IMG/VR virus record: IMGVR_UViG_3300042348_001285
Length of the DNA: 64,000 nucleotides
Origin: a virus
Taxonomy: Duplodnaviria > Heunggongvirae > Uroviricota > Caudoviricetes
Direction: 5' to 3' (one strand)
Positions 23,731 through 39,815 of the stretch are shown in pieces. Numbering within the stretch: position 1 is the first letter of the stretch; each line of letters opens with the position of its first letter. Under the pieces are notes generated by a model. That model was not told the origin of the DNA and ran no database searches. It worked only from the letters and a program-made list of their open reading frames with translations. A program made the translations under genes and the position numbers.

Positions 23731-24000
23731 TCATGCCATGAACTTAGCAATAGCCTCTTCGGCATCGGCACCATCGGCACCATGATTTACCATAAACTCC
23801 CACATAAGGTTAGTATCACCATCGAATCGCATCAGAAGGGAATCCAACAGTTCATCTTGACTGATACCACCAGAGGCATTCTGAAGCTCTGACATCCTGC
23901 TGTCCATGGCTGCATTCCTAAGCTCATCAAGGCTCATCGAATCGACATCACGTTGGCAATGGGCCTCGGCGATCTTACGAATCAAGGATTGGTCGATCAT
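23731..24000 (-). CDS. small acidic cassette ORF (89 aa)
   Basis: Cassette at 24010-24045. Confidence 0.45.
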   Translation of the reverse strand: MIDQSLIRKIAEAHCQRDVDSMSLDELRNAAMDSRMSELQNASGGISQDELLDSLLMRFDGDTNLMWEFMVNHGADGADAEEAIAKFMA

Positions 24001-24126
24001 GGTTGCGTGTGCGGTTGGCTGACTTCGGTATTATAGCATGGATAGGCAGGGTGCGAGGGATGTTACAGGGGGGTAACAACAGGCGCGGCAAGGGGCCAGG
24101 GTTCACAACCCCGACCCCCAGGACAG

Positions 24127-24501
24127 TCAACCAAAAGCCACAATGGCCTTTAGACTGGTGCGCCACGTTCCCGGCAGCTTCTCACCACGACGACCTACGA
24201 TCACGGGCAATTCCCCGACCATCTCAACCACGGTAACAATCTCAAATACCTGCAAGGTCGCAGCCAGCCAGGTTCCAAACCAGCGAGTCCGACCCGTGGC
24301 CTTGGCAATGTAACGGCAGCCATGGGGGCCTTCCAAGGCAAACTCTCCTTCCTCAAGGCAAAGATCATGGGGCGCATCAGCCAGGACATCCCAGTGCCCC
24401 CACCAGCCTTTACGGACGCCACCAGGGGCCTTCTCGCAGGGTTCAGCGGTGTGGGAACCGGTGCGGTTGATGGGTGAGGTGGCGGCGGTTGCGAAGGCCA
24501 T
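24127..24501 (-). CDS. hypothetical protein (124 aa, begins MAFATAATS)
   Basis: Cassette at 24510-24540. Confidence 0.45.
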   Translation of the reverse strand: MAFATAATSPINRTGSHTAEPCEKAPGGVRKGWWGHWDVLADAPHDLCLEEGEFALEGPHGCRYIAKATGRTRWFGTWLAATLQVFEIVTVVEMVGELPVIVGRRGEKLPGTWRTSLKAIVAFG

Positions 24502-24593
24502 TTGCCGGGGGGTGCGATACCTTGAAATTATAGCATGTTGCCAATGGGGTCGGGGTGCATCCCAACCACAAAACTGCCTACTAGCAACAAAAC

Positions 24594-24929
24594 TTAACCC
24601 ATAATGCCCCCAGGCCAACGTCCTCCCGGCGGGGTGCGCTCTGATGGGGATAGTTCGGGTGTTTCATCATAATAGCTAGGACGCAACTTGGCGAGGCGCT
24701 CTGCGTCGGAGACGCATTGGCAGTGTGGATTGTGCCCATTTTCCGCCATATAATTAGCGCCGCGCTTTGTTCTGGATGGTCCGATAACTGCCATGTAGTA
24801 CGGGGTATTGGCTTCGGTAGGGGTAACTACCGATTTGAAAACTTCCCGGTTACCTTGGTCGTATAACAAACCCACATAGAATTTTGCCCGTTGGGGTGTG
24901 TTAGTGGTTGAGGGGGTTGCGGTAGCCAT
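24594..24929 (-). CDS. hypothetical protein (111 aa, begins MATATPSTT)
   Basis: Cassette at 24935-24965. Confidence 0.5.
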   Translation of the reverse strand: MATATPSTTNTPQRAKFYVGLLYDQGNREVFKSVVTPTEANTPYYMAVIGPSRTKRGANYMAENGHNPHCQCVSDAERLAKLRPSYYDETPELSPSERTPPGGRWPGGIMG

Positions 24930-25039
24930 CGTTGCGGTGTCGGTTGGTTGGCTTCGTAATTATAGCACATGGCCGGGTGTGGATGCGGTTCGGCATGTTG
25001 ACCCCGGGGTGTGGTGGACAGTTTGTTAAGTGTCTATTT

Positions 25040-25330
25040 GCGTTGGGAGTTTGACTTTAGGGGTTTGATTCCGGGGTGTATTTTCGGAGTTAATGTGGAA
25101 CCTTAGGGTGCGTTTTCAGGGCAATGTGGAAACTCTGAAATCAAAAACCCGAAAGTCAATCCCTGAGATCCATTGCAGGGGAACGGAGTTACTCCTAAAA
25201 AAATTAAAAATTTTAGGACCTAGTTGAAAACCATCCAAAAAATTCTACATTTGAATGCATATTATGCACCCTGGGGTCTTTATATATATACTTTTTCGCG
25301 AATATATGTATAATAAGTGTTTACCTTATG
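25040..25330. repeat. complex intergenic module, copy F
   Basis: Same subfamily as copy D. Confidence 0.8.
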
Positions 25331-25537
25331 TTGTTGGTGAGTTGAATAGTTGACGACTGGGTGTGATCTCGTCGGTCTCAGTTGAGTATCGGAATGAGTT
25401 CACATCGAGTAGTTTACAGTTGGGATACAGTCTCGTTTCAGCCCCACAATAAGACTCATCCAAATAGTCAACAACTAGGGTACGGTCTCAACAGTCTCAC
25501 TTCAATCTCACAATGAGATCACACTTCAAGAGCAAAC
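25331..25537. repeat. degenerate copies of the 64-bp unit between modules F and G
   Basis: Reads '...gatacagtctcgtttcagccccacaataagactcatccaaatagtcaacaactagggtacggtctcaacagtctcac...'. Confidence 0.6.
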
Positions 25538-25865
25538 AGATGGGTGCATTTTAGGAGTAATGTGGAATCTCAGGGTGCATTTTAGGAGTAATGTAGAATG
25601 CCCCAAATCGAAAATCGAAAATCCATTCCTTGAAATCGACTGCAGGGGAACGGAGTTACTCCTAAAAAAATTAAAAATTTTAGGACCTAGTTGAAAACCA
25701 TCCAAAAAATTCTACATTTGAATGCATATTCTGCACCCTACTACTATAATCGCATATAAATTATTTAATAGAAGACTCTTATCAATGAGTTACGATATAT
25801 AAGAGTTCCTTATCAATAGGTAATAGCAGTAAGGCAACAAAAAAAGGGGGGGTAATCACCCTAAG
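25538..25865. repeat. complex intergenic module, copy G
   Basis: Two near-identical iterons 'GGGTGCATTTTAGGAGTAATGT(G/A)GAAT'. The right arm is nearly identical to copy A. Confidence 0.8.
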
Positions 25866-25890
25866 GCAATCCCTCCCCTAAAAACAGCAC

Positions 25891-26076
25891 TTATGCCCAA
25901 ATAGTATCAACCTGTGCCTGATACCCTTTCTGCTTCATCGCTTCGGCAATCCGCTGGGCCACGTTCCGATCATGGTAATCGGCCCTGGTGGTATAACCCG
26001 AAGCCCCAGAACCAGTGGCAATCAAACCAGTGGCAATCGGACTGGGGGCAATGGTGACACGGTGTAGTTGGGCCAT
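25891..26076 (-). CDS. small cassette ORF (61 aa)
   Basis: Cassette at 26085-26115. Confidence 0.45.
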   Translation of the reverse strand: MAQLHRVTIAPSPIATGLIATGSGASGYTTRADYHDRNVAQRIAEAMKQKGYQAQVDTIWA

Positions 26077-26151
26077 GGTGCGGTTTGGTGTGGTACCACG
26101 TAATTATAGCATTATGCCGTGGCATTGGCAAGCATGGGGCCGGGGGGAACG

Positions 26152-26526
26152 TCAACCCCGCCCATACTGGCGAACCCTCTCCAAATAGGTCCCCCAAACC
26201 GACGGATCCATGGCACCTGCCGTTGTCTTAAAGTGATGGGAGAAAAACGTAATGGCAAGCTCCATATTGCGCCTACCAACAGGATTAGCAGAATGAATGA
26301 CCACAGCCGGTGGAATAAACCCACCATCAAAACCATTCTCATACACAATTTGCTCAATCCACTTGCAAACATCCATGCCAGTTCCCCTAGCGTCATCCCC
26401 GAGATCATGATCCAAGGATACAACTTCGACATTGCCAGTCTTCAGCAATTCGATAACCTCATCAGGCCAATAGCAACGGACCCATCCATCAGGGGTAGGC
26501 CTGATATCATCGAGAAATACTTTCAT
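26152..26526 (-). CDS. receiver-fold-like small protein (CPR/REC-like signature LDDxR...DHDLG)
   Basis: 'MKVFLDDIRPTPDGW...VVSLDHDLGDD'. The start overlaps the stop of the cassette mini-ORF (ATGA). Confidence 0.35.
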   Translation of the reverse strand: MKVFLDDIRPTPDGWVRCYWPDEVIELLKTGNVEVVSLDHDLGDDARGTGMDVCKWIEQIVYENGFDGGFIPPAVVIHSANPVGRRNMELAITFFSHHFKTTAGAMDPSVWGTYLERVRQYGRG

Positions 26527-26564
26527 TGCCTTGGGGTTAGGTAGACTGTGGGCGTGGTTGCCAT
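26523..26564 (-). CDS. cassette-encoded mini-ORF (13 aa, MATTPTVYLTPRQ), translationally coupled to 26152..26526
   Basis: ATG GCC ACC in the conserved cassette position. Its stop TGA overlaps the ATG of the next gene. Confidence 0.3.
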   Translation of the reverse strand: MATTPTVYLTPRQ

Positions 26565-26886
26565 TGGGGAGGTCCGGTGGGTTACGGCAGGGGAATCATA
26601 GCATGGCCCTGGCAGGTTAGTTGGTGGCCCCGTAATTATAGCACAGGGGGGCCAGGCTACGGGTGCCGTTACATTCCGTAACAACAGGTACGGCAAGGAG
26701 TCACTGGATGGCAACCCCTGTAAAGAATTGGCCAGGTTGTGGGGTTATGCTTTCGCTCCTGAAGGGTAGCCAGGCGAAGAAGGGCAGCCCTGCGGCTGAT
26801 AGTCCTACTTCCATTTCCCACTATTTGCCTTCACGTCTACCTGTATTTTGGGTTGTGACCCTATTGTAGCATGGGCCGAGGCAGAG

Positions 26887-27081
26887 TCAACCCTCAGGGT
26901 CCTTGGGGCTGCTGTCATCAAGTAAAGCCATTGCGACTATGGATCCAATGAAAAGTAGAAACCATAACGTACTCAATATAGATAATAGCCCTAGGTTTCC
27001 CTTAGCTACCCAATAAGCAGCAGAGAATATGTGACATTGGGTGATAATAAACTTGGTGTTACGTTTGAGGTTTGACAGCAT
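26887..27081 (-). CDS. small membrane cassette ORF (64 aa)
   Basis: Hydrophobic 'LLSILSTLWFLLFIGSIVAMALL'. Confidence 0.4.
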   Translation of the reverse strand: MLSNLKRNTKFIITQCHIFSAAYWVAKGNLGLLSILSTLWFLLFIGSIVAMALLDDSSPKDPEG

Positions 27082-27208
27082 GGTGCGGTTGGGGGTTGGC
27101 GACAGGTGTATTATACCACAGGTCCGGCAGACAGTGGAAAGGGGCCAATGCCAACGGCACCAACCCCCCAAGCAATCGGCCAATGCCAACAGCAGCCAGC
27201 GGCACCAA

Positions 27209-27463
27209 TCAGCTAGCCACTGCAAGCAGCCGATCAGCCACCCTGCCTTTCGCAGTACGCTTCCCATCGAGATAATACAAGGTATAGACCCGCCCCGGCT
27301 TCACACTGGGGGTGACTGTGATGGCTAGGGCCTTGCCGTTGATGCGGATGGCAGTTTCGGCCTTGTTGCCAGCAGCAGCAGCAGCCACGGTATCGGCTTC
27401 GATGGTGGCGAGACGGGTAGCCAGAGTCTCAGGCTTACGGATGGTGAGAGGGGGAGTAGCCAT
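27209..27463 (-). CDS. hypothetical protein (84 aa, begins MATPPLT)
   Basis: Lies downstream of three tandem consensus promoters. Confidence 0.5.
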   Translation of the reverse strand: MATPPLTIRKPETLATRLATIEADTVAAAAAGNKAETAIRINGKALAITVTPSVKPGRVYTLYYLDGKRTAKGRVADRLLAVAS

Positions 27464-27499
27464 GGTTGTGGGTGGGTTGTGTTGTGGGGTGAATCCCTG

Positions 27500-27672
27500 G
27501 GACCTTGCTATTATAGGGTAGGCAATGGATGTTGTCAATACCCGGTTAATGGTGGCGGTGGTCTGGACCTTGCCATTATAGGCGAGACAATAGGTGTTGT
27601 CAATACCCGGTTAATGGTGGGGGCATCGGGAATAGAGCCACTATAGGCAAGGCAATGTGGGGTGCCAATACC
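27500..27672 (-). promoter_or_regulatory. three tandem near-consensus sigma70 promoters (TTGACA-N17-TATAAT) with a 65-bp period
   Basis: Reverse complement of each unit reads 'GTATTGACAACATCCATTGCCTACCCTATAATAGC'. The third copy reads TTGGCA...TATAGT. Confidence 0.7.
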
Positions 27673-28102
27673 AGACGGCAGGATCCCTCAGGGTCACCAT
27701 ATTATGGCATATTGCCCGTGTTATTGCAACCCCTTGGCCCCGGTTTATACCTTGGCTTGTTCGCCCCCGCCACGATGTGTTAAGTTTTGTAACGATCTGG
27801 GGGGGGGTAATTAAGTTTTGTTACGATTCGGAGTTTGTTACCCCGTGGCATCGACTCGGAGTTTGCCATCCGGGGCGTCTACCCATCTCCAAGGCATTGA
27901 CAGCTGCCGGAATCCACGCTATAATACGCAGACAACCAAACGAGGGGCGAGGTAGCCCTGCTGACGAAAAAGGTCGCCACGGAACCTGCCTGCTTATAGT
28001 TATTACCGGATAGTAAAAAAAGGGGGGGGGTTAGCCCCGAGTTTATCCCAGAGTCATAACCCTGGAGTCATAACCCCGAAGCCATAACCCCCAATTCCAA
28101 AG

Positions 28103-28576
28103 TCATACCGCAGCCAACTGCCGACCCCTGGAATAGAACTGCTTACAGCCATACTTGGCCGCAATTTCATCCAAACTACCCGGATTGGAGCGGCTCCGGC
28201 CCAGCCCAGCAGGCTTCCAGAACCAGCATTTCCGGCCACTATGCCAGCGGCACCCTAGCGCCTTCAGGTCTTCCTTAACGGGCTTGGTATCACCCGTGAC
28301 CCATACCCATAACCCAATCAGGTTAATGTCCAGGTTAGGAATCTTAAGCAATTCTGCAATCTGATCCATGATAGCCTGCTCGGTTTTTTCCGTATAGCGA
28401 TAGGTGCGCCCATCGTCCTCTTGACCGTTGCAGCTTGCGAGAGCGGCATGGTAGGCAGCATTAAGGGCCTTCATGGTTTCCAGATCGCCACCAAGATCAG
28501 GGTGGTGCTTGCGAGCCAGATCACGATAGGTGCCTTTAATGGTTTCGACAGTGGTGAGGCCAGTGAAGAATGTCAT
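28103..28576 (-). CDS. J-domain (DnaJ-like) protein
   Basis: 'YRDLARKHHPDLGGD' carries the HPD motif. Confidence 0.7.
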   Translation of the reverse strand: MTFFTGLTTVETIKGTYRDLARKHHPDLGGDLETMKALNAAYHAALASCNGQEDDGRTYRYTEKTEQAIMDQIAELLKIPNLDINLIGLWVWVTGDTKPVKEDLKALGCRWHSGRKCWFWKPAGLGRSRSNPGSLDEIAAKYGCKQFYSRGRQLAAV

Positions 28577-28721
28577 TGCCGGTTCCAGGTGGTGTGTGGG
28601 AACGATGTTAGTGTAGCATGGTTGCCGGTGGGTCGTCAACCCCCCTTTTTTAGGGGAAAGGTTAAAACCGCTACCTGCTGACTCTGGAATTATAGCACAC
28701 TGCACTAAAGGCTGTGGCCCC

Positions 28722-28991
28722 TCAAGGGTAGGTAAATTTTTTGTGCAGAACAAGGGCGCATTTGGAACCCTGTGCCTTCAATGTAAGATAGTATCCGTCA
28801 TCTTTTCTGGAGCAACGAATACCTGTCCACCCGAATATCTTCTTTGCCTTTTGTACAATTTGTCTATTTGTCATACCGCCACAAGCAAACTCATCATATC
28901 TATGGCATTGGCTCACATCTTTGCCAACAAGAGTAACCTCCTCTACGCAAGCCATTTCTTTGGTTCTAAAAACAGATGGGGATGTACTCAT
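28722..28991 (-). CDS. small Cys-containing ORF (89 aa) behind two tandem cassettes
   Basis: Cassettes at 29010-29050 and 29085-29110. Confidence 0.4.
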   Translation of the reverse strand: MSTSPSVFRTKEMACVEEVTLVGKDVSQCHRYDEFACGGMTNRQIVQKAKKIFGWTGIRCSRKDDGYYLTLKAQGSKCALVLHKKFTYP

Positions 28992-29261
28992 GGTGGGACC
29001 CGGTGCGTTTAGTTGGTGGGTGACTTTGGTAGTGTAGCATGGGGCCAGGGGCAATGTCAACACCCTGGTTTTGGTCCCTTGCTTGCTGACCCATGAATTA
29101 TAGCATGTCCGGGGGCCAACTGTGGATGGCCGGGAGTTAATGCTCATGGGCCGACACATTGCCGAAGGGATTGACAAGGCTGGGGGGAGTCGCCCTATAA
29201 TGGGCAAACAATCAGAGAAGGGGCCTTGCCCACAGGTAATAGGTTATGCCACGGGGCTATG

Positions 29262-29545
29262 CCATGGTGCGTTTTGCCGTTAATGTAGAATTTTGGGGTG
29301 TGTTTTCGGGGTTAATGTGGAATCGTCAAAATCAAAAACCCAATTTTCATTTCCCCAAATCCATTGCAAGGGAACGGAGTTACTCCTAAAATTTTTGAAT
29401 TTTTTAGGACCTAATGAAAAACGATCCAAAAAATTCTACATTTGAATGCAAATTCTGCACCCTACTATCATATATTCGCGAAAAATTTATTTATAGTACA
29501 CTCTTATCTAAATACCTATATAGATAAGTTTTGTTTATCAATGAG
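29262..29545. repeat. complex intergenic module, copy H
   Basis: Iterons 'GGTGCGTTTTGCCGTTAATGTAGAAT' and 'GGGGTGTGTTTTCGGGGTTAATGTGGAAT', plus the hairpins and the AT-rich tail. Confidence 0.8.
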
Positions 29546-29653
29546 TTTGCTGTTAGTTCTCATCAGCCATCTAACTATCGTCAAGCCAATTTAAATACCA
29601 TGCCATTTTATTCCCCGAAAGATATAGTCAGTAGGTCATCACCCTATCAGCAA

Positions 29654-29860
29654 TCAGCAATCAATCCCCATAGCCAAGCACCAATTATCAAGGGCACTGT
29701 CCCAAATCCAATGGGTCTCATCTTGGAGCCATCCCTTAGGAAGCCCCAAAATATCAATAGCAGCCTCTGCCAAGGCGGTAGCACAATTGTACTCCCGAGC
29801 GTTGCCATACATCCAGCTTGAGATCGAACGTTGGTTGAAGCTTGAGATTGAGCGAGCCAT
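29654..29860 (-). CDS. small cassette ORF (68 aa)
   Basis: Cassette at 29865-29900. Confidence 0.4.
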   Translation of the reverse strand: MARSISSFNQRSISSWMYGNAREYNCATALAEAAIDILGLPKGWLQDETHWIWDSALDNWCLAMGIDC

Positions 29861-29924
29861 GGTTTCCTCCGTTAGTGACAGGGAAATTGTAGCACGGTGT
29901 CGGCGGGTTGTCAACTTATTGGCA

Positions 29925-30158
29925 TCAATCCCCTTCGGAAACAACCTCGAAGTCCACCTCAAAGGGGCCATCCCACTCCTGAGCCCACTGGGGGGCACAC
30001 TCGCCCATGAAGCGAAGATCATCCGACTGATGAGAGAATGGTTCAGGAACCGTGTCAACTACACAGACCCAAGTTGGAAGATTCCCCCGACGCACAGGGT
30101 GGGCAGTGTCCCCGACCCATTCTTGAGCCAGGAAGGTGCAGCGTAGGGTGTGTGCCAT
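29925..30158 (-). CDS. small acidic cassette ORF (77 aa)
   Basis: Cassette at 30190-30230. Confidence 0.45.
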   Translation of the reverse strand: MAHTLRCTFLAQEWVGDTAHPVRRGNLPTWVCVVDTVPEPFSHQSDDLRFMGECAPQWAQEWDGPFEVDFEVVSEGD

Positions 30159-30324
30159 TGTGAGGTCGGTGGGTTGGTTGCGTTTGGTATGAACCTATTG
30201 TAGCATGGGGCTAGCGGGACCGTCAACCCTTGAGTCTCAGGGACTGGCAATCATGGTTGCCGGTGGGTTGTCTACCGGCTGGCTTTAGCTGCCTGGCTTC
30301 GACCATCGGGCCCCGACCGGAAGC

Positions 30325-30780
30325 CTAATCAATGCAGGCAGATAGCCACCATTGGGGTTCTCCCGTGGTTTCAATCCCGAACTTTCGTACAAATTCTACC
30401 AATCTCCGATGTTCTTCCCCTGAAATTGATAGGGAATCAGGGCCCAATGATACAGGGTCACAATCGCTGCTACTTCTCAACTCCTGCACAGCTAGGATGA
30501 TACAAGGGTTCTGAGCCCATCCATATGCCACTACCTTAACAGGGACCGGATTAGATTTCAGCCATTCCCTCTGATTACGCCACCGAGCATCGGCATCTGC
30601 GCATGTAAAACCATCCTTATATTCACCTTTATCATCAAAGGGGCACTCAACAGGGTTAACGTACCCATTTACATCAACCCACCATTCTTCAATATCGCAG
30701 TCTTCATCATCAGACCAGGGGAATTCAAACCCTTCTTCAAACATGAAGCCGTAACTTAGGCCAGCAGTGGCAGAGGTCAT
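30325..30780 (-). CDS. hypothetical acidic protein (151 aa, begins MTSATAGLSYGF)
   Basis: Cassette at 30810-30850. Confidence 0.5.
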   Translation of the reverse strand: MTSATAGLSYGFMFEEGFEFPWSDDEDCDIEEWWVDVNGYVNPVECPFDDKGEYKDGFTCADADARWRNQREWLKSNPVPVKVVAYGWAQNPCIILAVQELRSSSDCDPVSLGPDSLSISGEEHRRLVEFVRKFGIETTGEPQWWLSACID

Positions 30781-30960
30781 TGGGGGGGTGCGTTTGGTTG
30801 CGGTTGGTTGGTACGGACTTATCTTAGCATGGTGCCGGGGTGGTGTCAACCCCCTAGCTTCAAGGGCTGGCAAGCACGGGGCCGATGGGAACGTCAACCC
30901 TTGGGCTTCGGGGATTGGAAACCTATCGGCAACAACCTATCGGCACCAACCCCACGGCCC

Positions 30961-31365
30961 CTATCGACTGGCATACAAATATCCCCCAGCCCAATCTGCC
31001 CGCTGATAGCAACTTTCCGGGTCTTCCAACAAATTGTAACGAATACCCTTGGCCGGGGCCTTCCAATTAGCTACCTTGTAAACATCCCCGGTTACCCGGT
31101 CCACAAAAGCATGAGCAGAGCGATTGCCGGACGTTGCCATTATGATTTTCAGATACTTGCGCCCTTCCTCCACTGAGAATGTCGGGGCATAATCCTTGCC
31201 AACCCCATTAGGATTAAACCGCGCATAGTTATCAGCCAGAACCGCGCATAGCTTGAGGGTGGCGGTGAGAACCGGGCTAGGAGCCTCAGGGGTGGTAGCC
31301 TCAGGGGTGGTAGCTTCGGGGTTGGCAGTGCCAGGGCCAGCAACCGGGTTAATCATAGCAATCAT
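30961..31365 (-). CDS. WKAPAKG(V/I)R-family protein (134 aa), paralogue of 10999..11307
   Basis: Shared motif. An N-terminal direct repeat PEATTPEATTPEA arises from a 15-bp DNA repeat. Confidence 0.5.
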   Translation of the reverse strand: MIAMINPVAGPGTANPEATTPEATTPEAPSPVLTATLKLCAVLADNYARFNPNGVGKDYAPTFSVEEGRKYLKIIMATSGNRSAHAFVDRVTGDVYKVANWKAPAKGIRYNLLEDPESCYQRADWAGGYLYASR

Positions 31366-32008
31366 GGCGGGTCGGGAACGGTGGTGTTTGGTTCCTGCCT
31401 ATTATACGCCTTAGGGGCTCAAACTGTCAAGGCATCGTCAAGAGGCCACCAGGGGAATTGCCGAGGTATTGTCAAGGCATCGTCAAGGGGCCATCAGGGG
31501 ACTTACCATAGGGAACCAATGGGCATACCAAGGGGCCACCAGGGGGCCAGAATGGCAAAAAAAAGCAAAAAGCCAAGGGACCCCCACCGAGCCGAGGCTC
31601 AGAAACCCAGTCACTGTCAGGGATTTTCCCTTACTGTGGTTGTCTTCATTTGAGAATGCCCTAGGTGGGTGTTCCTAATTGTTGTTACCAAAGTTTCAAA
31701 CCTGAAAAATTGAAAAATTTGAATTTATTATATTTTTCTAAAATACTAACACACTATAATGTCATAATGCCATAACAGTATAACACTATCGTTATACGAT
31801 CATAGAGTCATTTTGATCTTGGGGGGCACCTTGACACTACGGAACCTTAACCTCATAGTACCAACATATCGTGGCACCGTCTCACAGTAACATCATTGCG
31901 CTAACACACTATAATGCCATAACAGTATAACACTATCGTTATACGATCATAGAGTCATTAACCCTGGGGACTAAAGCGTGTCTGGGCAGGCACAGGCAGG
32001 CCCGGCAA
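31366..32008. other. about 640 bp of AT-rich non-coding region at the compositional boundary: direct repeats, palindromes, TTGACA-N18-TATAAT promoter at its left edge
   Basis: Contains 2x 32-bp 'tgtcaaggcatcgtcaag(a/g)ggccaccagggga', 2x about 60-bp 'ctaacacactataatg..ccataacagtataacactatcgttatacgatcatagagtcatt', and the palindrome GTATAAC-N6-GTTATAC. There are no ORFs. Confidence 0.7.
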
Positions 32009-32218
32009 TCAAACAATAGCCAAGACTTCACATCGGCTTCCATCCGTGTTTCCCCATGTGTCACCAATGCTTACACCTTGGCGGAAGACGAAGCCGATTG
32101 AATAACGACGCGGGCTATACCAAAGTTTGGTAATAGCTGCCGGGAGCTGATACCCGTGCATAGCTTTGACTTCCAATGCCCGGTAGATTTGCTCTTGAAT
32201 TTGATCGTTATTGGCCAT
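32009..32218 (-). CDS. hypothetical protein (69 aa)
   Basis: Intact ORF. Confidence 0.45.
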   Translation of the reverse strand: MANNDQIQEQIYRALEVKAMHGYQLPAAITKLWYSPRRYSIGFVFRQGVSIGDTWGNTDGSRCEVLAIV

Positions 32219-32242
32219 AACTTGCGATGCGGTGGGGTCGAT

Positions 32243-32473
32243 TTAATTAAAGCCTTCAATAAACTCGCGCACCTTCCAGCTCGTGGTCAGGTCTCCAAAC
32301 GACATCATGCCCACCCCAAGCGCGATACCTGAGTGATCTACGGTCTCGGGGTGCTTTCTGAGGTCGCTAAACATGGAACTCAGCGCTTGTTGCAAGTAGC
32401 CTTGATCGCAGTAGGCCAATGCTCGCTTCTTGCACCATTCCAGGTGCTGTGCTCGGGTTTGTATGGTTTGCAT
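32243..32473 (-). CDS. hypothetical protein (76 aa)
   Basis: Intact ORF. Confidence 0.45.
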   Translation of the reverse strand: MQTIQTRAQHLEWCKKRALAYCDQGYLQQALSSMFSDLRKHPETVDHSGIALGVGMMSFGDLTTSWKVREFIEGFN

Positions 32474-32592
32474 GGTTTGAATGTGGGTGAAGTTGTGAGT
32501 ATAGGTTATGGATTGAAGCAGTGGTGGCCCTAGTGTGCCAATTTTCTAGGTGTCACTTTAATCTAACTAATCCAACTATTATTATCTGGAAG

Positions 32593-33012
32593 TCAACCAT
32601 CCCTCAAATAAGACGTAACAATGACGGGCACCCTATCGGGCCACATATAAGCTCCATTATCCTCCAGACCTTCCATCACACAGGTAACTTCTACTTCACC
32701 GTCGTCTGGGGTTTCATAGATCTTAGTGTCACACTCTTCTGCTGCGGATGGGCTATAAAATGCTAGTCGTTGCTTGGTAGAGCAAGAGTAGATGAAGCTC
32801 AAAAACTTTGACAGTTTGGCATCATCGTAGAAGCAATCTGCCTCTGCGGGGATAATAATGTAAGGGTACTTTTCCCCTAATCGGGCACTAAGAAACTGCC
32901 CGTATCTTAGACCCCCTTTATGCGCAAGCCATGCAGAGTTTGCATCTCTCAAAAACAATTCGGGGCAGAATGAATCCATTGGGGGTTGCGGTTTGTGGAA
33001 TCTGACTCCCAT
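32593..33012 (-). CDS. hypothetical protein (139 aa)
   Basis: Intact ORF. Confidence 0.5.
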   Translation of the reverse strand: MGVRFHKPQPPMDSFCPELFLRDANSAWLAHKGGLRYGQFLSARLGEKYPYIIIPAEADCFYDDAKLSKFLSFIYSCSTKQRLAFYSPSAAEECDTKIYETPDDGEVEVTCVMEGLEDNGAYMWPDRVPVIVTSYLRDG

Positions 33013-33137
33013 AGTCTAGCACACGGGAGACCTAGCCAGACCCCCCCTATGCCAGTTCTCAGGGTGTCACTACCATCCTGCGTGCGTGCAATAACCGGGA
33101 AGGCAAGTCCCCATAAGATAGGCCCAAGGCCCAAGAC

Positions 33138-33827
33138 TCAATAAGAAACGCACCGGAAAGCTCGCACATTGTAAGTATTGCTTTTGATGCCGGAGCTGCT
33201 CTGGACACCTCCAGCGAAACAGACGGGACAAGCCATGGACCCAATAAACTCGCTAGAACTCCAATACCAGACCCCATTGAACTCACCAGGAATGACCCCA
33301 TACGCTAGCATCAGTTGCTCTACCGTGGGAACAAACCACTGAGAAGGAATAAAACCTAGTTCTGCAAGCCTATCAAAGACTTCCGAAAATTCCTTAGACC
33401 ATTGGCAAGAAACTTCCGTCGATTTCGGTGCAACCACCAGGGCAAGACCGTTCCCTTTCTTTAGAACAATAGAACCATCCCCCAAGGTATCTCCTACTTC
33501 CGCATCTTGAATGTTAGGTGCCGGTTCGGACTCAAGTTGTTCTTTCAGTTTTACCAGTTGTTCTTCTGTGTCCTTAATGGACTGGAGTAATTGCCTGTTG
33601 ATACTCATTGTTTCTACGATCCTCTCGATCTTCACAATATCCTTTGAGTGTTGGCAATCATAGGAAAGATAATATCCCCCAGGGCCCCACATACAATCAC
33701 TAAGTTTGAATGGATAGTAACCACTCTTCAAATTTAATTCAATAGTGCCCGTAAGAACATCACCATTACGCAACGTAACCGTTACTTCTTTGCCGACAAA
33801 TTGTTCAAGATTGATAGAGGTTGCCAT
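33138..33827 (-). CDS. protein with an N-terminal 'NLxQFVGKEVxVxLRxG' beta-barrel-like domain (paralogous to 45959..46648 and 46724..47419) and a coiled-coil middle
   Basis: 'MATSINLEQFVGKEVTVTLRNGDV' compares with 'MTLKLNLSQFVGKEVDVELRDGEI' in the paralogue. Confidence 0.55.
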   Translation of the reverse strand: MATSINLEQFVGKEVTVTLRNGDVLTGTIELNLKSGYYPFKLSDCMWGPGGYYLSYDCQHSKDIVKIERIVETMSINRQLLQSIKDTEEQLVKLKEQLESEPAPNIQDAEVGDTLGDGSIVLKKGNGLALVVAPKSTEVSCQWSKEFSEVFDRLAELGFIPSQWFVPTVEQLMLAYGVIPGEFNGVWYWSSSEFIGSMACPVCFAGGVQSSSGIKSNTYNVRAFRCVSY

Positions 33828-33958
33828 TTAATTGGTTGGTGGTGGATGCCGGTTGGTGGTGGTTTACTCCGGCTATGCACCAATTGTAGCATGATGACGG
33901 GGTAGTGTCAACTCCCCATAGCTTTAACCAAATGGCAAGCATAGGGCCAACGGCAACG

Positions 33959-34234
33959 TCAACCCCCTGGCTCCAAACCCGTATTAAAACACCGGGGCGG
34001 AAACATTTGAACGTAACGGCGAACATCAGCCAAATAAATTGACCTAGACATAACGGTTATGCCGTTCCCCCCATTTAGTCGAAATTGATAGGCCAATTGA
34101 ACAGGATTCCACAGCGGGTTGATAACTTTTCCTGATTCACAATCAACATAAACCCCTATGCCAGGTGTTACAAATTCAACCTCTCTCCAACCATGGGCTA
34201 AAGCTTCTTGAAGGCTATTAAAAGAGTTAATCAT
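33959..34234 (-). CDS. hypothetical protein (91 aa)
   Basis: Intact ORF. Confidence 0.45.
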   Translation of the reverse strand: MINSFNSLQEALAHGWREVEFVTPGIGVYVDCESGKVINPLWNPVQLAYQFRLNGGNGITVMSRSIYLADVRRYVQMFPPRCFNTGLEPGG

Positions 34235-34310
34235 GTTGATGTTGGTTAATATTGGTCAATATTGGTCAATGTCAGTTAATGGGGTGGTGACTGGTCAATG
34301 TTAACACAGA

Positions 34311-34517
34311 TTAGGTCCAAAAAGAAGACTCCGAAATTATAATAACAACCACCTTCAAATCATAAAAATACCTAACCTGACAAACATCGTAAGATACCCC
34401 ACCAATAATAATCATTTCGCCCTTTCGCGGAATAATGCTAGAAAAATAATTTATGTCCAAGATAGGGCCACCATGGATCTTAAAATGAAGTTGAAATTGG
34501 TTAACGATGGAGTTCAT
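34311..34517 (-). CDS. hypothetical protein (68 aa)
   Basis: The stop of the upstream gene overlaps this start (ATGA at 34514-34517). Confidence 0.4.
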   Translation of the reverse strand: MNSIVNQFQLHFKIHGGPILDINYFSSIIPRKGEMIIIGGVSYDVCQVRYFYDLKVVVIIISESSFWT

Positions 34518-35254
34518 TGGTTGCGAGGAGAGTTAATTCCAGTAGTCAGACCAATGACCAGCTGATACATCATGTCACGATGCTTTGTTGTCCATTGTTC
34601 ATCAGAATAAGACGTTCCAACCTTATGCACCCTTCCAGCACCAAGTTCCTTATTAAGATAATTCAACCATGCAGTGCAAAAATTCAATGCGACTCCTCGC
34701 ACACATTCCGGTGATTTACTGCTAAGTAAGTAAACCTTAGAATACTCCTCAGAGAGTGGATAAGGTCTTACATATTTGTACTCGTCGCCACCACCATGCT
34801 CGGTTCTCATTGGGTTATCCTCTTCGTTCACCAGCTGCTGATACAGACTGTCAACCGAAAGGTCATCCGGTGTAATCTCAGGAAAGACATACTTTGCAAG
34901 TTCCCCCTCAATGAATGCCTCTTTGTTCCAGTTACACTCCCTTTCTCTGCCTACTTTTTTGTATATTTTTTCCAGCTCAAGTTCCCATTCTTCTTTCTCT
35001 TCTGCTCTTTTTTCAACCTTCTCTCTCCATCGCGGCACCATCTCTTTCGTCATTTCTTCCTTATTGAAATCAGGAAACAAATGAATTGGGTACCTATCTC
35101 CAATGCCAATAGGCGACTGAGTTTCTTCATCCATCTCATAACCATTACCAATGGTAAAGAAAATGTGACCAAGAACACTTGCAGCACTAGGGAAGATACT
35201 GTGATATTCACCCATTTGGTATGAAATAAAATTACAAATTGATTGGATTGTCAT
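34514..35254 (-). CDS. hypothetical protein (246 aa)
   Basis: Long ORF with a Glu/Lys-rich central segment. Confidence 0.55.
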   Translation of the reverse strand: MTIQSICNFISYQMGEYHSIFPSAASVLGHIFFTIGNGYEMDEETQSPIGIGDRYPIHLFPDFNKEEMTKEMVPRWREKVEKRAEEKEEWELELEKIYKKVGRERECNWNKEAFIEGELAKYVFPEITPDDLSVDSLYQQLVNEEDNPMRTEHGGGDEYKYVRPYPLSEEYSKVYLLSSKSPECVRGVALNFCTAWLNYLNKELGAGRVHKVGTSYSDEQWTTKHRDMMYQLVIGLTTGINSPRNQ

Positions 35255-35330
35255 GGTAGTTGATTAGGGTCAGTTTATAGGGTAGGTTGATGCGGTTGTG
35301 GTTCTATTGTGCCAGGTTTCCAATTGCCTC

Positions 35331-35690
35331 TCACAAATACAACCCGGGGTGAAAATGATCATTGCTATAGGACCTTACTTTCTGATTATCTGACATAAGA
35401 AAATAAGTCAAATTATCAATGAGATTTTTCGTAACCCTGGTAATCATCATCTGCCGATTAAGTTTGTAGTTCAAGTCCTTAAGAAGATCCCTAACAGCAA
35501 CTGCAGAAAGAGTAACTTCAAAACCCCATTGCTTACGGACTGATTCTTGCAAGTTGCTATAAACAAACTCACCTATATCAGTATAAACATAACCAACTTC
35601 TAATACAATCCTAAAGTCGGACAAAAATGCAGCCGCTTCTTGACGTTCAAGAAAAACCGTAAGAGACGATTCCCGTTTTTTGAAGTTCAT
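35331..35690 (-). CDS. hypothetical protein (119 aa)
   Basis: Met follows the promoter at about 35745-35770. Confidence 0.45.
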   Translation of the reverse strand: MNFKKRESSLTVFLERQEAAAFLSDFRIVLEVGYVYTDIGEFVYSNLQESVRKQWGFEVTLSAVAVRDLLKDLNYKLNRQMMITRVTKNLIDNLTYFLMSDNQKVRSYSNDHFHPGLYL

Positions 35691-35820
35691 AGGTGGTAGG
35701 TGGTGGGGGCGGTTGGTTGGTTGGTCCCGGCTGGTCCCGGTGATGAACCCACTATAGCACAATGCCAAGGCAGCGTCAACTCCCGGGAATAAGTAAGTAT
35801 AAATACCTACCACACCCCCC

Positions 35821-36087
35821 CTATAGTGGAAGAGGGGGCAACCATTCCGATTCGGAAGACAGTAAAAACGCAGCCAAACTTAAAACTGCATCCTCTACAT
35901 ATTTAAACTCTTCTGGAGAAACAGAATTAGGTCTAAATACTTTAGCATAGCCTTGAATATCCAAAATAACCCAGCGCCAAATTCTCCCCCTGGTAACATC
36001 CCCACAAGTCGAATCATCCATAACCCGAAATGACCAACCTACAGGCAATCTCTCTCCTATTACAACCAAGGCATCAGGTAATTCCAT
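35821..36087 (-). CDS. hypothetical protein (88 aa)
   Basis: Intact ORF. Confidence 0.45.
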   Translation of the reverse strand: MELPDALVVIGERLPVGWSFRVMDDSTCGDVTRGRIWRWVILDIQGYAKVFRPNSVSPEEFKYVEDAVLSLAAFLLSSESEWLPPLPL

Positions 36088-36131
36088 AGTAAACCATCAA
36101 CAAAAAATAAGCAATCAAACGACACCAAATA

Positions 36132-36401
36132 TCAATTAGCAGGCTCAACCCCACCGGCAGTCACAAGCTCCCGCCAGCGTAAATCCGATGCCTTACCCAC
36201 AAGATAATCCACACACTCCCACCAATCCCCTTCCCTAACCCCATGACTCAACAATCTCTGCAATGCCACAGCTAAAACCTCAGAAGTCGGCAACGGCCTT
36301 CCACTTTCCTTCCGAGACCTTACCAATAAGGATATATCCCGGCAGGCTTCATTGCAGGCGGCTTCAATTTTGCGCGGTTGGTTGGTTGCGGTGGTATCCA
36401 T
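36132..36401 (-). CDS. hypothetical protein (89 aa)
   Basis: Intact ORF. Confidence 0.45.
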   Translation of the reverse strand: MDTTATNQPRKIEAACNEACRDISLLVRSRKESGRPLPTSEVLAVALQRLLSHGVREGDWWECVDYLVGKASDLRWRELVTAGGVEPAN

Positions 36402-36458
36402 GGTTGTTTGCAGTTTGGTAGCGGTTTGGTAGCAGTTTGGTAGCGGTTCGGCACGGGC

Positions 36459-36647
36459 TTAGAATGGCATACCGCCAGATGCCAACAGCCAGTCGCTAAA
36501 GTCGCTAAACTTGATCTTGGGTTCCAATTCGGGGGATTCCGAGCCAAATGCCAACTCATCTTTCGGACCATAAAATCCACGACCACTAGAAAGGGCAACT
36601 TGCATAGCGCCTTCTTTGACCAGAAAGATAAAACCACCTAGTCGCAT
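36459..36647 (-). CDS. hypothetical protein (62 aa)
   Basis: Intact ORF. A further short minus-strand ORF may begin near 36802. Confidence 0.35.
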   Translation of the reverse strand: MRLGGFIFLVKEGAMQVALSSGRGFYGPKDELAFGSESPELEPKIKFSDFSDWLLASGGMPF

Positions 36648-36897
36648 AACAACACGTGTGAACCGGGGGTATCACCATCACCTTTTTCTTGCTGGATATA
36701 GGCAATTAGAGACGGGTCCAGAAAAATTGACTCGCCTGTTTGACTATCGGTCAAAGACAGGAATTCATTTTTGCGCGATTGGTTGCTGGTTGCGGTGTTC
36801 ATTGGTTATCGGGTAGTTGACTTTTAAAGTTTAGGTTACGAGTTGGGAACAGTGGCGGTTCTAGGGTTCCAGTTGATCAAGTGGTTTCAGCTAAAGT

Positions 36898-37086
36898 TTA
36901 TTTCAACATCTCAGTATAATCAAGTTGGCATACAGAAAAAGCGCCTGTATTCATTAACTCCCTAAACGAGTATCTGTAAAAACAGGTAGGCATATTCAAT
37001 TTATTATTATCCCCTGTATATGTACCGTCTTCGTTGCGTGAAAATCTTTCACCATCATCTCTCCATAAGTGGGGAACTTTATTCAT
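36898..37086 (-). CDS. hypothetical protein (62 aa)
   Basis: Start and stop overlap the neighbouring gene (ATGA at 37083-37086). Confidence 0.4.
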   Translation of the reverse strand: MNKVPHLWRDDGERFSRNEDGTYTGDNNKLNMPTCFYRYSFRELMNTGAFSVCQLDYTEMLK

Positions 37087-37301
37087 AATTTCGTTGGTAT
37101 AAGATCACGATCTTCCAAGTGTTCTTCAAAAGACTTATCAGTATATCTCGCCAAGTCATAAGCAGCATCCAATAGGTCATTGAGCATTTCTTGAAGCTCC
37201 CCCTTTGGGTTCGATTTGTGAACCGATGTGATAATCGTAGTTGAACCATCTTCTACAATAATTTCTACATCATCGTAGTGACACTTTGTTGTAAGTTTCA
37301 T
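37083..37301 (-). CDS. hypothetical protein (72 aa)
   Basis: Intact ORF. Confidence 0.45.
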   Translation of the reverse strand: MKLTTKCHYDDVEIIVEDGSTTIITSVHKSNPKGELQEMLNDLLDAAYDLARYTDKSFEEHLEDRDLIPTKL

Positions 37302-37372
37302 TGGCGGTCTGGTTGTTTACTTAGTAATGGTAACAGAGAGCGGGGTCGTTCGGTTGGCTGGGGCACCAGTTC

Positions 37373-37795
37373 TCAGGTTGTTTCCCCCGCAATACTAGAC
37401 ATCAATTCTCTGGCTTGTGAAACAAACTCTTTCGTCTCTTCTTCGTGCCAGTAGTAGTTACCCTGCCAATCGTGAGTTTCCAGAAAAAACAACATTTCCT
37501 TGGCATTAAACCACTTGATTTTATTAACCAAGTCTTGACGAAGCTCTTCTACTTCTTCATATGAATTACAACCTTGGAGCCAATCGCAGCCGCTGCAACT
37601 TCCCCAGCCAAAAATAAGAAAGCCATAACTTTCCCCTTTCTTGAGGATGAGACGGCTATCCCCCTGATAATCACTGTCGTCTACTTGAAGAAGAATTTCG
37701 CCAAAACTCTCAAGTAGGGGTTGATAGTCACAGAAACTGAAATAATCCGATTCATTGTCTAGGGGATACAAACTTTTAACGATGGATAGTTCCAT
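37373..37795 (-). CDS. hypothetical protein (140 aa)
   Basis: Intact ORF. Confidence 0.5.
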   Translation of the reverse strand: MELSIVKSLYPLDNESDYFSFCDYQPLLESFGEILLQVDDSDYQGDSRLILKKGESYGFLIFGWGSCSGCDWLQGCNSYEEVEELRQDLVNKIKWFNAKEMLFFLETHDWQGNYYWHEEETKEFVSQARELMSSIAGETT

Positions 37796-37887
37796 AATGA
37801 ATTTTTCAAGGATAAAGATAGTATGGTCGGTTAAATGGTCGTTTGGTTGGTCAGAAGGGTTAATGGGCCAGTTGTTAAAGTGTCACG

Positions 37888-38619
37888 TCATTTCGATTGA
37901 TTCTCAAGAAAGGGCGCAATTCCTAGCCAATCGTTATGCGTTTCTGGGTAGAACACATGAAGATAACTGCTAATGTGCTCAGAAATTCTACTGGAAAAAT
38001 ACTTATCGGCTTTCACCAATTCGTAAATTTTTGCGTAGGTTTCTTGGTCGGGACGAATGATAACCCTGCTGATGCATTGATCATAATCATATTCACAGTT
38101 ATAATAAGGAATATCTTCAATCTCCAAATCTTCTTTATTAAGAACCCAAGGATGCCCTTTGAGGTACTTCAAAAGTTCGGGGAGATTGCAGTGTTTGTTA
38201 CTGAAGGGGGAGCCAATATAATCAAACCCACGCGGAAGAGTATATGGAACAGCATTTGAATCAAAAATTATATGGCCAGAACTGTAAAACCAAATAAGAT
38301 TCTTTTCAGAAATGTTACCTTCAAGAATCTCTCCATCACTCATTTCGTGGCATTCACAGTCCCAAAATGGATTATTAGTTTTAATGCGTTCAAAGAATGA
38401 GTCCTTAACAAATGTAGGTCGGCACCCCTTAAGAACTTTCAGGTTCCTATCTTTGACCGCATTGATAACTTCAACTACTGCGGAAGTCTTACCTGATGGC
38501 TCCACCGTGGAAGTCGTCACTTGAAGATAGGCAAGACTCTTATCCACACCGGGAATAATGTAAGATGCAATCTCCGTAAATGTTGTGTGACGAGTGATTT
38601 CAATTGATGAAAGTTTCAT
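37888..38619 (-). CDS. hypothetical protein (243 aa); the track ORF 37888..38994 is over-extended
   Basis: The upstream part of the track ORF overlaps gene 38672..39052 in another frame. The likely start is MKLSSIEI at 38619. Confidence 0.45.
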   Translation of the reverse strand: MKLSSIEITRHTTFTEIASYIIPGVDKSLAYLQVTTSTVEPSGKTSAVVEVINAVKDRNLKVLKGCRPTFVKDSFFERIKTNNPFWDCECHEMSDGEILEGNISEKNLIWFYSSGHIIFDSNAVPYTLPRGFDYIGSPFSNKHCNLPELLKYLKGHPWVLNKEDLEIEDIPYYNCEYDYDQCISRVIIRPDQETYAKIYELVKADKYFSSRISEHISSYLHVFYPETHNDWLGIAPFLENQSK

Positions 38620-38671
38620 GGTTGGTTTTGCGAGTTTGGCAGATTTTGCGAGGCCGTCCGAGTACAGCAAC

Positions 38672-39052
38672 TTACTTGATAAGCTCAACAAGGTCTGAAA
38701 ACTTACTATAAATTTCACTAAATCCGTAAGCGTGGCCATCAGCATAGGCAATCGAATAGCAGAGTCCCTTTTTGGGATTATCAGTGACGCCAAATTCTTC
38801 AAAAAGGTCTTGAATAAATTCATTTTCCTTTTTGGCCATGGCACCTCTATGCGCCCCAACCCTTTCCCCATAAGCCTCTTTATCAAAATGACTTTCAATA
38901 AGCGCATCGGGATACTGTTTCCGAACTTCGGCCAAATTCTCTCCCCTACCTTGCCATAAAATTTCACCTTTGCTATACACATAGATGGTGACATATTCAG
39001 ATTTTACCGGGTAAGGAATGTCAGCGGTTCCGTAATAATCAAAGGGTTTCAT
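38672..39052 (-). CDS. hypothetical protein (126 aa)
   Basis: Promoter at 39120-39140. Confidence 0.5.
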   Translation of the reverse strand: MKPFDYYGTADIPYPVKSEYVTIYVYSKGEILWQGRGENLAEVRKQYPDALIESHFDKEAYGERVGAHRGAMAKKENEFIQDLFEEFGVTDNPKKGLCYSIAYADGHAYGFSEIYSKFSDLVELIK

Positions 39053-39183
39053 TTTGGTTTTGGGGTTGGTTGCGGATGGGGTTGGTTTGAAGAAAGTCGG
39101 GGTTGGTGGCAGTTTGGCTTAACCCCACTATAACATGGTGCCAGGTCGTGAACCCGTGCAACCACGTAACCCTATGATTGGTG

Positions 39184-39408
39184 TCAATCTGACCTAAGAC
39201 CATTATAGCACGGTGCCAGAGCAGGGGCAATCCCTTCCCCCACTACATCTAACAACATATCCCTAAGACGGCTCATTTCTTCACGATCACCAGCCATCAA
39301 CCACCCATAGCAAACATAATTCTTACTATATTCCTCATCCAAAATTGTGAACAGAACTTTAGCCGTCCTCTCTGGGAGGACAATTGTAACACCTTTAGAA
39401 ACTTCCAT
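39184..39408 (-). CDS. hypothetical protein (74 aa); 3' end overlaps the next promoter
   Basis: The C-terminal '..APCYNGLRSD' is a translation of a promoter cassette. Confidence 0.4.
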   Translation of the reverse strand: MEVSKGVTIVLPERTAKVLFTILDEEYSKNYVCYGWLMAGDREEMSRLRDMLLDVVGEGIAPALAPCYNGLRSD

Positions 39409-39499
39409 GAACCCTCCGGGGTTGTGATTTGAGGTTGAACAGGCACACACTATAGCACAATGCTAAGGCCCTGTCAATGCGGTCGGGTGTTGTTGGCTG

Positions 39500-39795
39500 T
39501 GTGGGGTTGGTGAGTATTTATACCTAGTGCTTGGCTAGGATGAGAGCCACTAGAAGTCGTTGACTCCTATAAGTTGGTGAGTATTTATACCTAGTGCTGA
39601 TTAGGTTAGGGGCCGTCTAGTGTTGTTGACTCCTGGGGCCCGTAAGTATTTATACTTAGTGCTGGTTAGGTTAGGGGCCGTTTTGTGTCGTTGACTCCTG
39701 AGGGGTCCGTAAGTATTTATACTCACTGCCGGCTAAGTCGGAGTCCCCCCGGTGTCGTTGGCTCCACACAAGTCAGTAAGTATTTATACTCACTG
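39500..39795. repeat. tandem array of about 65 bp, five units, each carrying AAGTATTTATAC (TATAAATA on the minus strand)
   Basis: Units begin at about 39512, 39578, 39642, 39708 and 39772. The inter-unit segments are mutually similar, so this is not CRISPR. Confidence 0.85.
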
Positions 39796-39815
39796 TTTTA
39801 AAACAAAAATCCCAC

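Follow-up and report, generated by a model that had tools for sequence, protein, structure and literature searches.

A conserved non-coding element upstream of a DUF7717 gene in an uncultured phage: a candidate transcription control region and recombination anchor

Layout of the element

The element described here is a non-coding region at positions 31366-32008 of a 64,000-nucleotide stretch of phage DNA (IMG/VR record IMGVR_UViG_3300042348_001285, Caudoviricetes), which as a whole is called the window. The element sits between two minus-strand genes, at 30961-31365 (start at 31365) and 32009-32218, the second of which has its stop next to the element. It was compared with its counterparts in 13 distinct related metagenomic phage versions, giving, together with the window, 14 aligned sequences. 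The comparison resolves the region into a predicted promoter, variable repeats, a single-copy core ending in a T-run, optional palindromes and putative recombination junctions. These parts and the two neighbouring genes are given below in coordinate order; handles such as L072 designate individual relatives.

30961-31365, minus strand: DUF7717 gene, 134 amino acids (Pfam PF24835, E = 4.6e-33; phrog_818), downstream of the element in 13 of 13 relatives.
31401-31430, minus strand: sigma-70-type promoter of the DUF7717 gene, 12/12 consensus, with TTGAC and TA.AAT in 14 of 14 sequences.
31423-31548, no strand assigned: G/C-rich 45-bp tandem repeats, two 38-nt copies and a third copy of a 17-mer; zero to three units in relatives.
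31553-31745, minus strand: single-copy conserved core, with a single nhmmer match in the window.
31557-31571, minus strand: T-run T5-GC-T8 at the 3' edge of the core; 13 of 14 sequences have a T-rich tract here, L072 having lost it by deletion.
31577-31675, minus strand: imperfect hairpin domain of about 100 nt in the main clade, from single-sequence folds; it includes the palindrome at 31612-31638.
31746-31812, no strand assigned: proximal palindrome module, with the palindrome at 31778-31797, a plus-strand TATAAT at 31755-31760 and a zone of 8-nt units at 31746-31777.
31813-31899, no strand assigned: spacer between the palindrome modules, with a plus-strand TTGACA-17-CATAGT.
31900-31958, no strand assigned: distal palindrome module, with the palindrome at 31925-31944 and a plus-strand TATAAT at 31910-31915; present in 8 of 14 sequences.
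31959-32008, no strand assigned: distal edge and junction with variable upstream DNA; similarity among relatives begins at about 31985-31996 (GCCCAGACACGCTTTAGTCCCCAGGG).
32009-32218, minus strand: upstream gene of 69 amino acids, one of the variable cassettes, with a homologue only in L081 among the 13 relatives.

In the direction of the genes, variable upstream genes are followed by a conserved distal edge (about 31990), zero to two palindrome modules and a hypervariable zone built of 8-nt units. An extended -10 sequence comes next in most relatives, and then the core of about 190 nt, the T-run, zero to three 45-bp units, the promoter and the DUF7717 gene. The length between the palindrome and the core varies by 8-nt units and that between the core and the promoter by 0-3 x 45 bp. 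Because these lengths vary freely, and not in units of the helical repeat, the alignment shows parts that behave as independent modules rather than as one fixed nucleoprotein architecture.

The first, sequence-only reading of the window had stated that the region contains no open reading frame. Frames of 90, 69 and 43 amino acids can be called mechanically, but none keeps its frame or its sequence in the relatives, so that the statement holds for coding capacity and not to the letter. Coding by the plus-strand frames of 90, 69 and 36 amino acids or by the minus-strand frame of 43 amino acids was rejected on these grounds. A 33-amino-acid frame (MAKKSKK...) was likewise discarded, being disrupted in relatives by changes of run length and a 1-nt deletion. 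ARAGORN finds no tRNA in the region.

Relatives and genomic setting

The relatives were gathered by three routes, namely the DUF7717 protein, the contigs of its graded homologues, and a pattern of invariant core positions. They fall into a main clade, whose core is 91-98% identical to that of the window (versus 81-91% for the DUF7717 coding sequence), and a distant clade, whose core identity is 71-73%, about the same as that of the coding sequence.

No DNA similarity to positions 30000-34000 was found among 50,697 deposited phage genomes; the lineage is known solely from metagenomes. Contigs from lake metagenomes carry the window sequence at 99.8-100% identity, and relatives are located on contigs of 279 kb and 272 kb. 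These matches assign the window to an uncultured freshwater jumbo phage of about 270-280 kb.

Other DUF7717 homologues, for example on marine contigs, lack such an element upstream. Patterns representing the invariant skeleton of the core recovered nine metagenome stretches, all within the same two clades, and otherwise only two viral contigs that were already known and one chance match in a bacterial genome. The palindrome pattern gave about 50 matches across viral contigs, all attributable to chance. Since DUF7717 homologues occur elsewhere without the element and the pattern scans return chance matches only, the element is, by the searches made, specific to this phage lineage.

Promoter, G/C-rich repeats and the DUF7717 gene

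The strongest signal in the element, which the sequence-only reading did not mention, is the 12/12 consensus promoter on the minus strand (31430-31401). It has the form TTGACA-18-TATAAT, with the -35 hexamer at 31425-31430 and the -10 hexamer at 31401-31406, 35 nt before the start codon of the DUF7717 gene. All 14 sequences preserve it. Near-consensus sigma-70 promoters are distributed very unequally in the window, with 39 on the minus strand versus 10 on the plus strand, and the extended -10 motif TGCTATAAT has 27 minus-strand copies and no plus-strand copy.

The two 38-nt copies of the G/C-rich repeat (31425-31462 and 31470-31507) are 89% identical and lie 45 bp apart. Within them and beyond, the 17-mer CAAGGGGCCACCAGGGG is found three times at a spacing of 45 bp; the window contains four matches to it, versus 0.41 expected. 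In each 45-bp unit, the minus strand reads TTGACG or TTGACA and the plus strand contains CAAGGGGCCACCAGGGG. The units carry spare -35-like hexamers, in a number (zero to three) that is unconstrained.

The AlphaFold2 model of the DUF7717 protein has a pLDDT of 86 and gives no fold match in the PDB (best E = 0.2). The protein was considered as an initiator or regulator acting at the element and was set aside, as it has no fold match and no helix-turn-helix is evident in its predicted secondary structure.

The conserved core

The core begins with an AT-rich tract (31686-31745), which is followed by a domain of the form ACC.ACCT.G..C...CTCAAA...CAGTGACT.GGTTT. Both nhmmer and motif searches place the core motifs at a single locus within the window. 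Rfam 15 gives no match at gathering score in the window, and none at E<=5 for positions 31200-32200 or for the L068 homologue.

The hairpin domain of the main clade is closed by GGAACACCCACC / GGUGGGGGUCC and contains a 27-bp imperfect palindrome (31612-31638). The U5-GC-U8 tract begins 4 nt past the long-range, G+C-rich closing helix. Upon aligning both clades, a consensus structure of 18 pairs is obtained that is 96% paired, versus at most 58% in slid controls, the test having been made on the sequences from which the structure was derived. The structure is accompanied by two GC-to-AU compensatory pairs and three wobble changes, all of them within one four-sequence clade, so that the compensatory changes are equivalent to about one evolutionary event; the G.U pairs in it are valid for the minus strand alone. 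The covariation support for an RNA structure in the core is suggestive only.

Palindrome modules and the hypervariable zone

The palindrome GTATAAC-N6-GTTATAC pointed out in the sequence-only reading is present in two perfect copies, at 31778-31797 and 31925-31944, and nowhere else in the 64 kb. The 20-bp sequence, GTATAACACTATCGTTATAC, has 7-bp arms and a 6-bp spacer, and about 0.13 matches to it are expected by chance in the window when up to two mismatches are allowed. The direct repeats reported alongside it were also recovered, as the two long modules (31746-31812 and 31900-31958) and the two 38-nt copies 45 bp apart, as were the A-tracts and the two plus-strand TATAAT boxes, at 31755-31760 and 31910-31915.

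The two modules are identical save for an 8-nt insertion and represent a unit of about 59 nt. Eight sequences have two copies, L079, L081 and L068 have one, and L066 has none left; the proximal module is found in 12 of the 14 sequences and is degraded in L066. The 8-nt units are expanded in relatives, reaching (GCTATGAT)x7 in L073. The distal module of L004 has lost its TATAAT through a 10-nt deletion. The TTGACA-17-CATAGT of the spacer is partly deleted in L004 and L064, and the spacer and distal module are both absent from L079, L081 and L068.

At the boundary of the AT-rich tract and the proximal module (about 31739-31747 in the window), most relatives have a minus-strand extended -10 sequence, TGGTATAAT, where the window carries TAGTATTTT. 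The module also contains ACACTATA, which resembles the promoters of SP6 and K11. A role as a promoter for a phage single-subunit RNA polymerase was nevertheless rejected, as the motif is found nowhere else in the 64 kb.

Mosaicism around the element

The 13 relatives show no fewer than six mutually unrelated upstream contexts attached to this one element, either at its distal edge or immediately at the proximal module. The recombination junction or mosaic boundary proposed in the earlier reading is thereby supported, and the comparison with relatives that it recommended locates junctions at these two positions. Upstream of about 31985-31996 the sequences of the relatives are unrelated, and the L081 homologue of the 69-amino-acid gene lies at a different distance from the core. 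At the protein level, small genes on both sides vary in their presence, in the interval between a conserved DUF4942 gene (about 40 kb) and the remainder of the small-gene block. The constant anchor among the relatives consists of the element and the DUF7717 gene. As the flank beyond DUF7717 is also mosaic, the element is one anchor in a larger mosaic and not a single border.

Between 5 and 31 kb, the window is made up of small genes, with repeated promoter motifs and further repeat families in between. Many metagenome contigs end inside the 59-nt repeat, and others end 1-2.4 kb downstream of the element. In this downstream interval, at 29.2 kb, lies the window's first copy of a multi-copy AT-rich family. 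The breaks are those expected from repeats and strain variation.

Base composition and strand skew

The region had been described as about 640 bp of AT-rich DNA. Its G+C content is in fact 46.3% overall and 56% in positions 31366-31640; only positions 31641-31770 are AT-rich (28.5% G+C), and these contain the lowest-GC 100-mer of the whole window (21%). The compositional boundary claimed for the region is real in its position and overstated in its size. By maximum-likelihood segmentation, no GC change point in the window is stronger than the one at 31,630, which lies inside the region, but the step there is small, from 50.1% (14981-31630) to 44.6% (31631-64000), not from 55-60% to 40%. The segment with 56% G+C is that from 5.4 to 15 kb. 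The small-gene block is bounded by change points, at 5,410 and 31,630.

The cumulative GC skew calculated within the window changes from plus to minus, as at a terminus, with a plateau at about 21-33 kb and a maximum at 29,320, a position that applies to the window only. The sign of the skew switches several times along the window, following blocks of genes. A separate observation concerns strand composition, which is opposite in positions 5001-28000 and 33000-46000 despite the uniform minus-strand orientation of the genes. The coding strand is rich in C in the small-gene block but rich in G at 33-46 kb, a contrast explained neither by gene orientation nor by any of the tests that were run.

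Interpretation

With moderate confidence, the element is interpreted as a control region made up of a promoter, a terminator-like core and operators, which also serves as a recombination anchor in a promoter-rich mosaic of small genes, resembling in its logic the PeSL cassettes of T4-type phages. The control region suggested in the earlier reading stands at the sequence level, given a promoter conserved in all relatives and palindromes that look like operators. Those parts of the element that can be explained are ordinary phage transcription signals. Transcripts of the upstream cassette would cross the palindromes and the AT-rich tract and then enter the core, whose structured domain and U-tract may attenuate or end them, making the core an insulator. 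The strong promoter would then restart transcription into the DUF7717 gene and the small-gene block. The palindromes might bind a dimeric DNA-binding regulator. Homologous recombination at the conserved non-coding sequences would swap cassettes and so generate both the mosaic and the compositional step; such exchange is suggested by the conservation of the non-coding sequences next to flanking genes that are not conserved.

Several observations weigh against the control-region interpretation. The terminator scan found only a 5-bp stem and no canonical intrinsic terminator in the core, and, folded as a single sequence, the minus strand does not outperform shuffled sequences (z = +0.23). The apical hairpin of the main clade is not preserved in the distant clade, and L072 has no T-run at all. 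The consensus structure suffers from having been tested on its own source sequences and from compensatory changes that amount to a single event. In the searches made, no cognate regulator gene was found for the palindrome, and the predicted model of DUF7717 has no recognisable DNA-binding fold.

The core might instead be a free-standing small RNA gene of the minus strand, about 175-190 nt long, which has its own extended -10 promoter, ends at the U-tract and is regulated by the protein that binds the palindromes. Such a gene would fit a core that is single-copy and conserved, ends in a T-run and has no conserved open reading frame. Immediately 5' of the AT-rich tract, most main-clade relatives have TGGTATAAT and L073 has TGCTAAAAT, both being extended -10 boxes in the promoter style of the 27 TGCTATAAT copies; a second minus-strand TATAAT (31727-31732) is present in the window and the main clade, and the weak covariation holds only on the gene strand. 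However, the corresponding promoter is mutated to TAGTATTTT in the window itself, L066 and L083 have no convincing -10, and the loss of the T-run in L072, the lack of an Rfam family at E<=5, the unexceptional stability of the minus-strand fold and a structure not cleanly common to both clades all count against an RNA gene, which is judged unlikely. The same doubt attaches to the wider proposal that the core is a lineage-specific structured RNA without an Rfam family, having its own extended -10 promoter in most relatives, controlled through the palindromes and taking part in the early programme of this jumbo phage (about 275 kb). An RNA of this kind could be a small regulatory RNA or an RNA insulator heading the host-takeover gene block.

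The replication origin put forward in the earlier reading, in which the palindromes would be initiator sites, the AT-rich tract an unwinding element and the inverted repeat an auxiliary structure, has an arrangement resembling that of origins of the lambda and SPP1 type. The locus is unique, conserved and non-coding. Palindromic repeats flank an AT-rich tract that contains the lowest-GC 100-mer of the window and ties for its least stable 60-mer, a 27-bp imperfect palindrome and a long inverted repeat (nhmmer self-reverse match, E = 2e-4) lie nearby, and the strongest GC change point is at 31,630. The skew, however, has the opposite polarity to that of an origin, reaches its maximum away from the element and switches sign with the gene blocks. 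None of the seven TTWTNCACA matches to the DnaA box in the window falls in 31366-32008, although such boxes are needed only for DnaA-dependent origins. The palindromes number from zero to two, and their distance to the AT-rich tract shifts by 8-nt units with no helical phasing; eight other AT-rich elements in the window melt about as easily; no initiator-like gene adjoins; and the G.U pairs point to constraint at the RNA level. An origin finds no support in the tests run on the window and its relatives and is considered improbable. Still harder to sustain is the idea that the virion DNA physically ends at the element, or that a long terminal repeat carrying early host-takeover genes, as in SPO1 and T5, has its border there, with the core as the region recognised or cut by terminase. 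GC change points at both ends of the block (5,410 and 31,630), a unique and conserved core, a block dense with strong host-type promoters of one orientation that begins right past the element, and a terminus-like skew, which would fit ends joined in the assembly, are all compatible with it. Yet small, variable genes with sigma-70 promoters are also found upstream of the element, which is therefore not where the early-type region begins. The contig breaks are accounted for by the 59-nt repeat, strain mosaicism and the copy of the AT-rich family; two near-complete contigs have the element at very different distances from their ends, and no terminase gene is nearby. A genome end at this position is thus highly improbable.

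The element provides an example, beyond the T4-type phages, of conserved non-coding control sequences that persist while neighbouring small genes are swapped, and of a genome whose composition shifts exactly at such a conserved anchor. The core and the palindromes offer concrete handles for experiments. Were the core to prove an origin or a small RNA, this phage group, which has no cultured member, would gain a useful landmark.

Other features of the window

Every large open reading frame of the window is on the minus strand. The products include a cysteinyl-tRNA synthetase, a DnaN-type sliding clamp, a DUF4942 protein, an SPFH protein, a pentapeptide-repeat protein, an HNH nuclease, a CCA-adding/poly(A)-polymerase-like enzyme, a kinase and phosphoesterase pair and a thymidylate kinase; two tRNA genes are present. 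The best phage matches of the clamp are 24-31% identical and belong to cyanobacterial and other, unrelated phages. T4 core genes were not seen within the 64 kb, and HIP1 (GCGATCGC), checked as a marker of cyanobacterial hosts, has no copy in the window. A 273-kb Microcystis jumbo phage, PhiMa05, is known from the literature; protein and DNA searches of deposited phages gave no close relative.

The AT-rich family consists of eight non-coding elements of about 330 nt between small genes, each lying between a gene stop and the next G/C-rich promoter (14990-15400, 16945-17350, 19670-20075, 21440-21700, 22005-22410, 24985-25330, 25450-25860 and 29175-29580). All have a hairpin CCTAAAA...TTTTAGG, the loop of which is inverted in some copies, and the family also occurs in the relatives. 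Further marks of the family are a GGAGTAACTCC hairpin, a CTTATC/GATAAG palindrome and direct repeats TTC.ACATTAC...AAAA.GCACCC. Homology of the AT-rich tract of the core to this family was rejected, the only matches being of low complexity (E ~9). Beside members of the family lies a non-coding 64-nt tandem repeat (21815-22049; 3.7 units, 97% identical), a diverged extra copy of which is found 3.5 kb away at 25419-25537.

Between 6800 and 29100 there are at least 22 copies of a 32-nt minus-strand promoter motif ...TGCTATAATACCGAAGTCAAC..., for example at 12277-12308, 18946-18977 and 22881-22912, and nearly every small gene in this interval has its own extended -10 promoter, in the manner of PeSL. 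A 65-nt tandem repeat of 2.2 units (27512-27672) contains a near-consensus or consensus minus-strand promoter in each unit. The only perfect (12/12) plus-strand promoter of the window, at 27897-27925, is directed against the genes. The motif GATGTTACAAAACTTAACA, flanked by short tandem units of (C)GGTGAGTTTGC, has 10 copies in 6900-21320 and one inverted copy at 27764-27793. A second operator-like palindrome, TAAGTATTTATACTTA, is found in 65-67-nt tandem repeats and at three other intergenic sites, in both orientations (39580-39795, 42973-42997, 47509-47552 and 47807-47835).

On the minus strand at about 5990-6050, the sequence ...GGGCCCTGGTTCGATCCTAG... resembles a tRNA T-arm that is not called by ARAGORN or Rfam; it may be a tRNA remnant near the GC change point at 5.4 kb. 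The pentapeptide-repeat protein (41529-42302, minus strand) has a DUF5758 C-terminus and is encoded with about 23 tandem 15-nt units (repeat at 41845-42187). Also on the minus strand, the CCA-adding/poly(A)-polymerase-like enzyme (56964-57713), a calcineurin-like phosphoesterase (60299-61021) and an AAA_33 kinase (61133-61681) lie near a tRNA-Ser gene (62328-62412), and together they look like a set for tRNA or RNA repair or maturation. A perfect 36-nt tandem duplication, equal to 12 codons, is situated at 50068-50139 in the 5' end of a MIT_C / phospholipase-D-like gene (48763-50142, minus strand).

Comparison with known systems

Phage origins such as lambda ori, SPP1 oriL and the origins of lactococcal and S. 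thermophilus phages combine repeated initiator sites with an AT-rich unwinding element. The element shares with them a unique, conserved, non-coding sequence in which dyad-symmetric repeats lie beside a very AT-rich tract, with a further palindrome. It differs in having zero to two sites at variable, non-helical spacing, the wrong skew polarity, no DnaA boxes and no adjoining initiator gene.

In the OR and OL regions of lambdoid phages, repressor operators overlap promoters. The 20-bp palindrome, positioned 10-18 nt downstream of a plus-strand TATAAT and duplicated 147 bp away, is similar in this respect. The differences are that no cognate regulator was found, the palindrome is confined to a single locus, no plus-strand gene lies downstream, and the distal -10 is deleted in L004.

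Early host-takeover clusters with many strong host-type promoters occupy the genome ends of some phages, as in the terminal redundancy of SPO1 and the pre-early region of T5. Like these clusters, the small-gene block has dozens of small genes of one orientation, each with a strong sigma-70 promoter, and a distinct composition. Unlike them, it gives no evidence of a physical end or terminal repeat in the window, and similar genes continue upstream of the element.

The closest parallel is with PeSLs (promoter-early stem-loops), cassettes of a sigma-70 promoter and a stem-loop that are found at indel and replacement junctions in the hyperplastic regions of T4-type phages (Arbiol et al. 2010, PMC2839356; Comeau et al. 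2014, PMC4122927). Both systems place a sigma-70 consensus promoter directly 5' of a small gene of unassigned function, with G/C-tract sequences beside the promoter and an AT-rich stretch farther upstream. Both are set among many small variable genes, each with its own promoter, and in both the indel and replacement junctions between close relatives coincide with conserved non-coding sequences. However, PeSLs are short and present in about 50 near-identical copies per genome, whereas the element is 640 bp long and its core and palindromes occupy a single locus. Its hairpin is non-canonical and has only a putative terminator role, and the phage, with its DnaN-type clamp, does not look like a T4-type phage. 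Being long, single-copy and unproven as a terminator, the region is not, strictly speaking, a member of the PeSL family. A better fit to PeSL than the region itself is given by the short promoter motifs that recur in many copies through the surrounding block.

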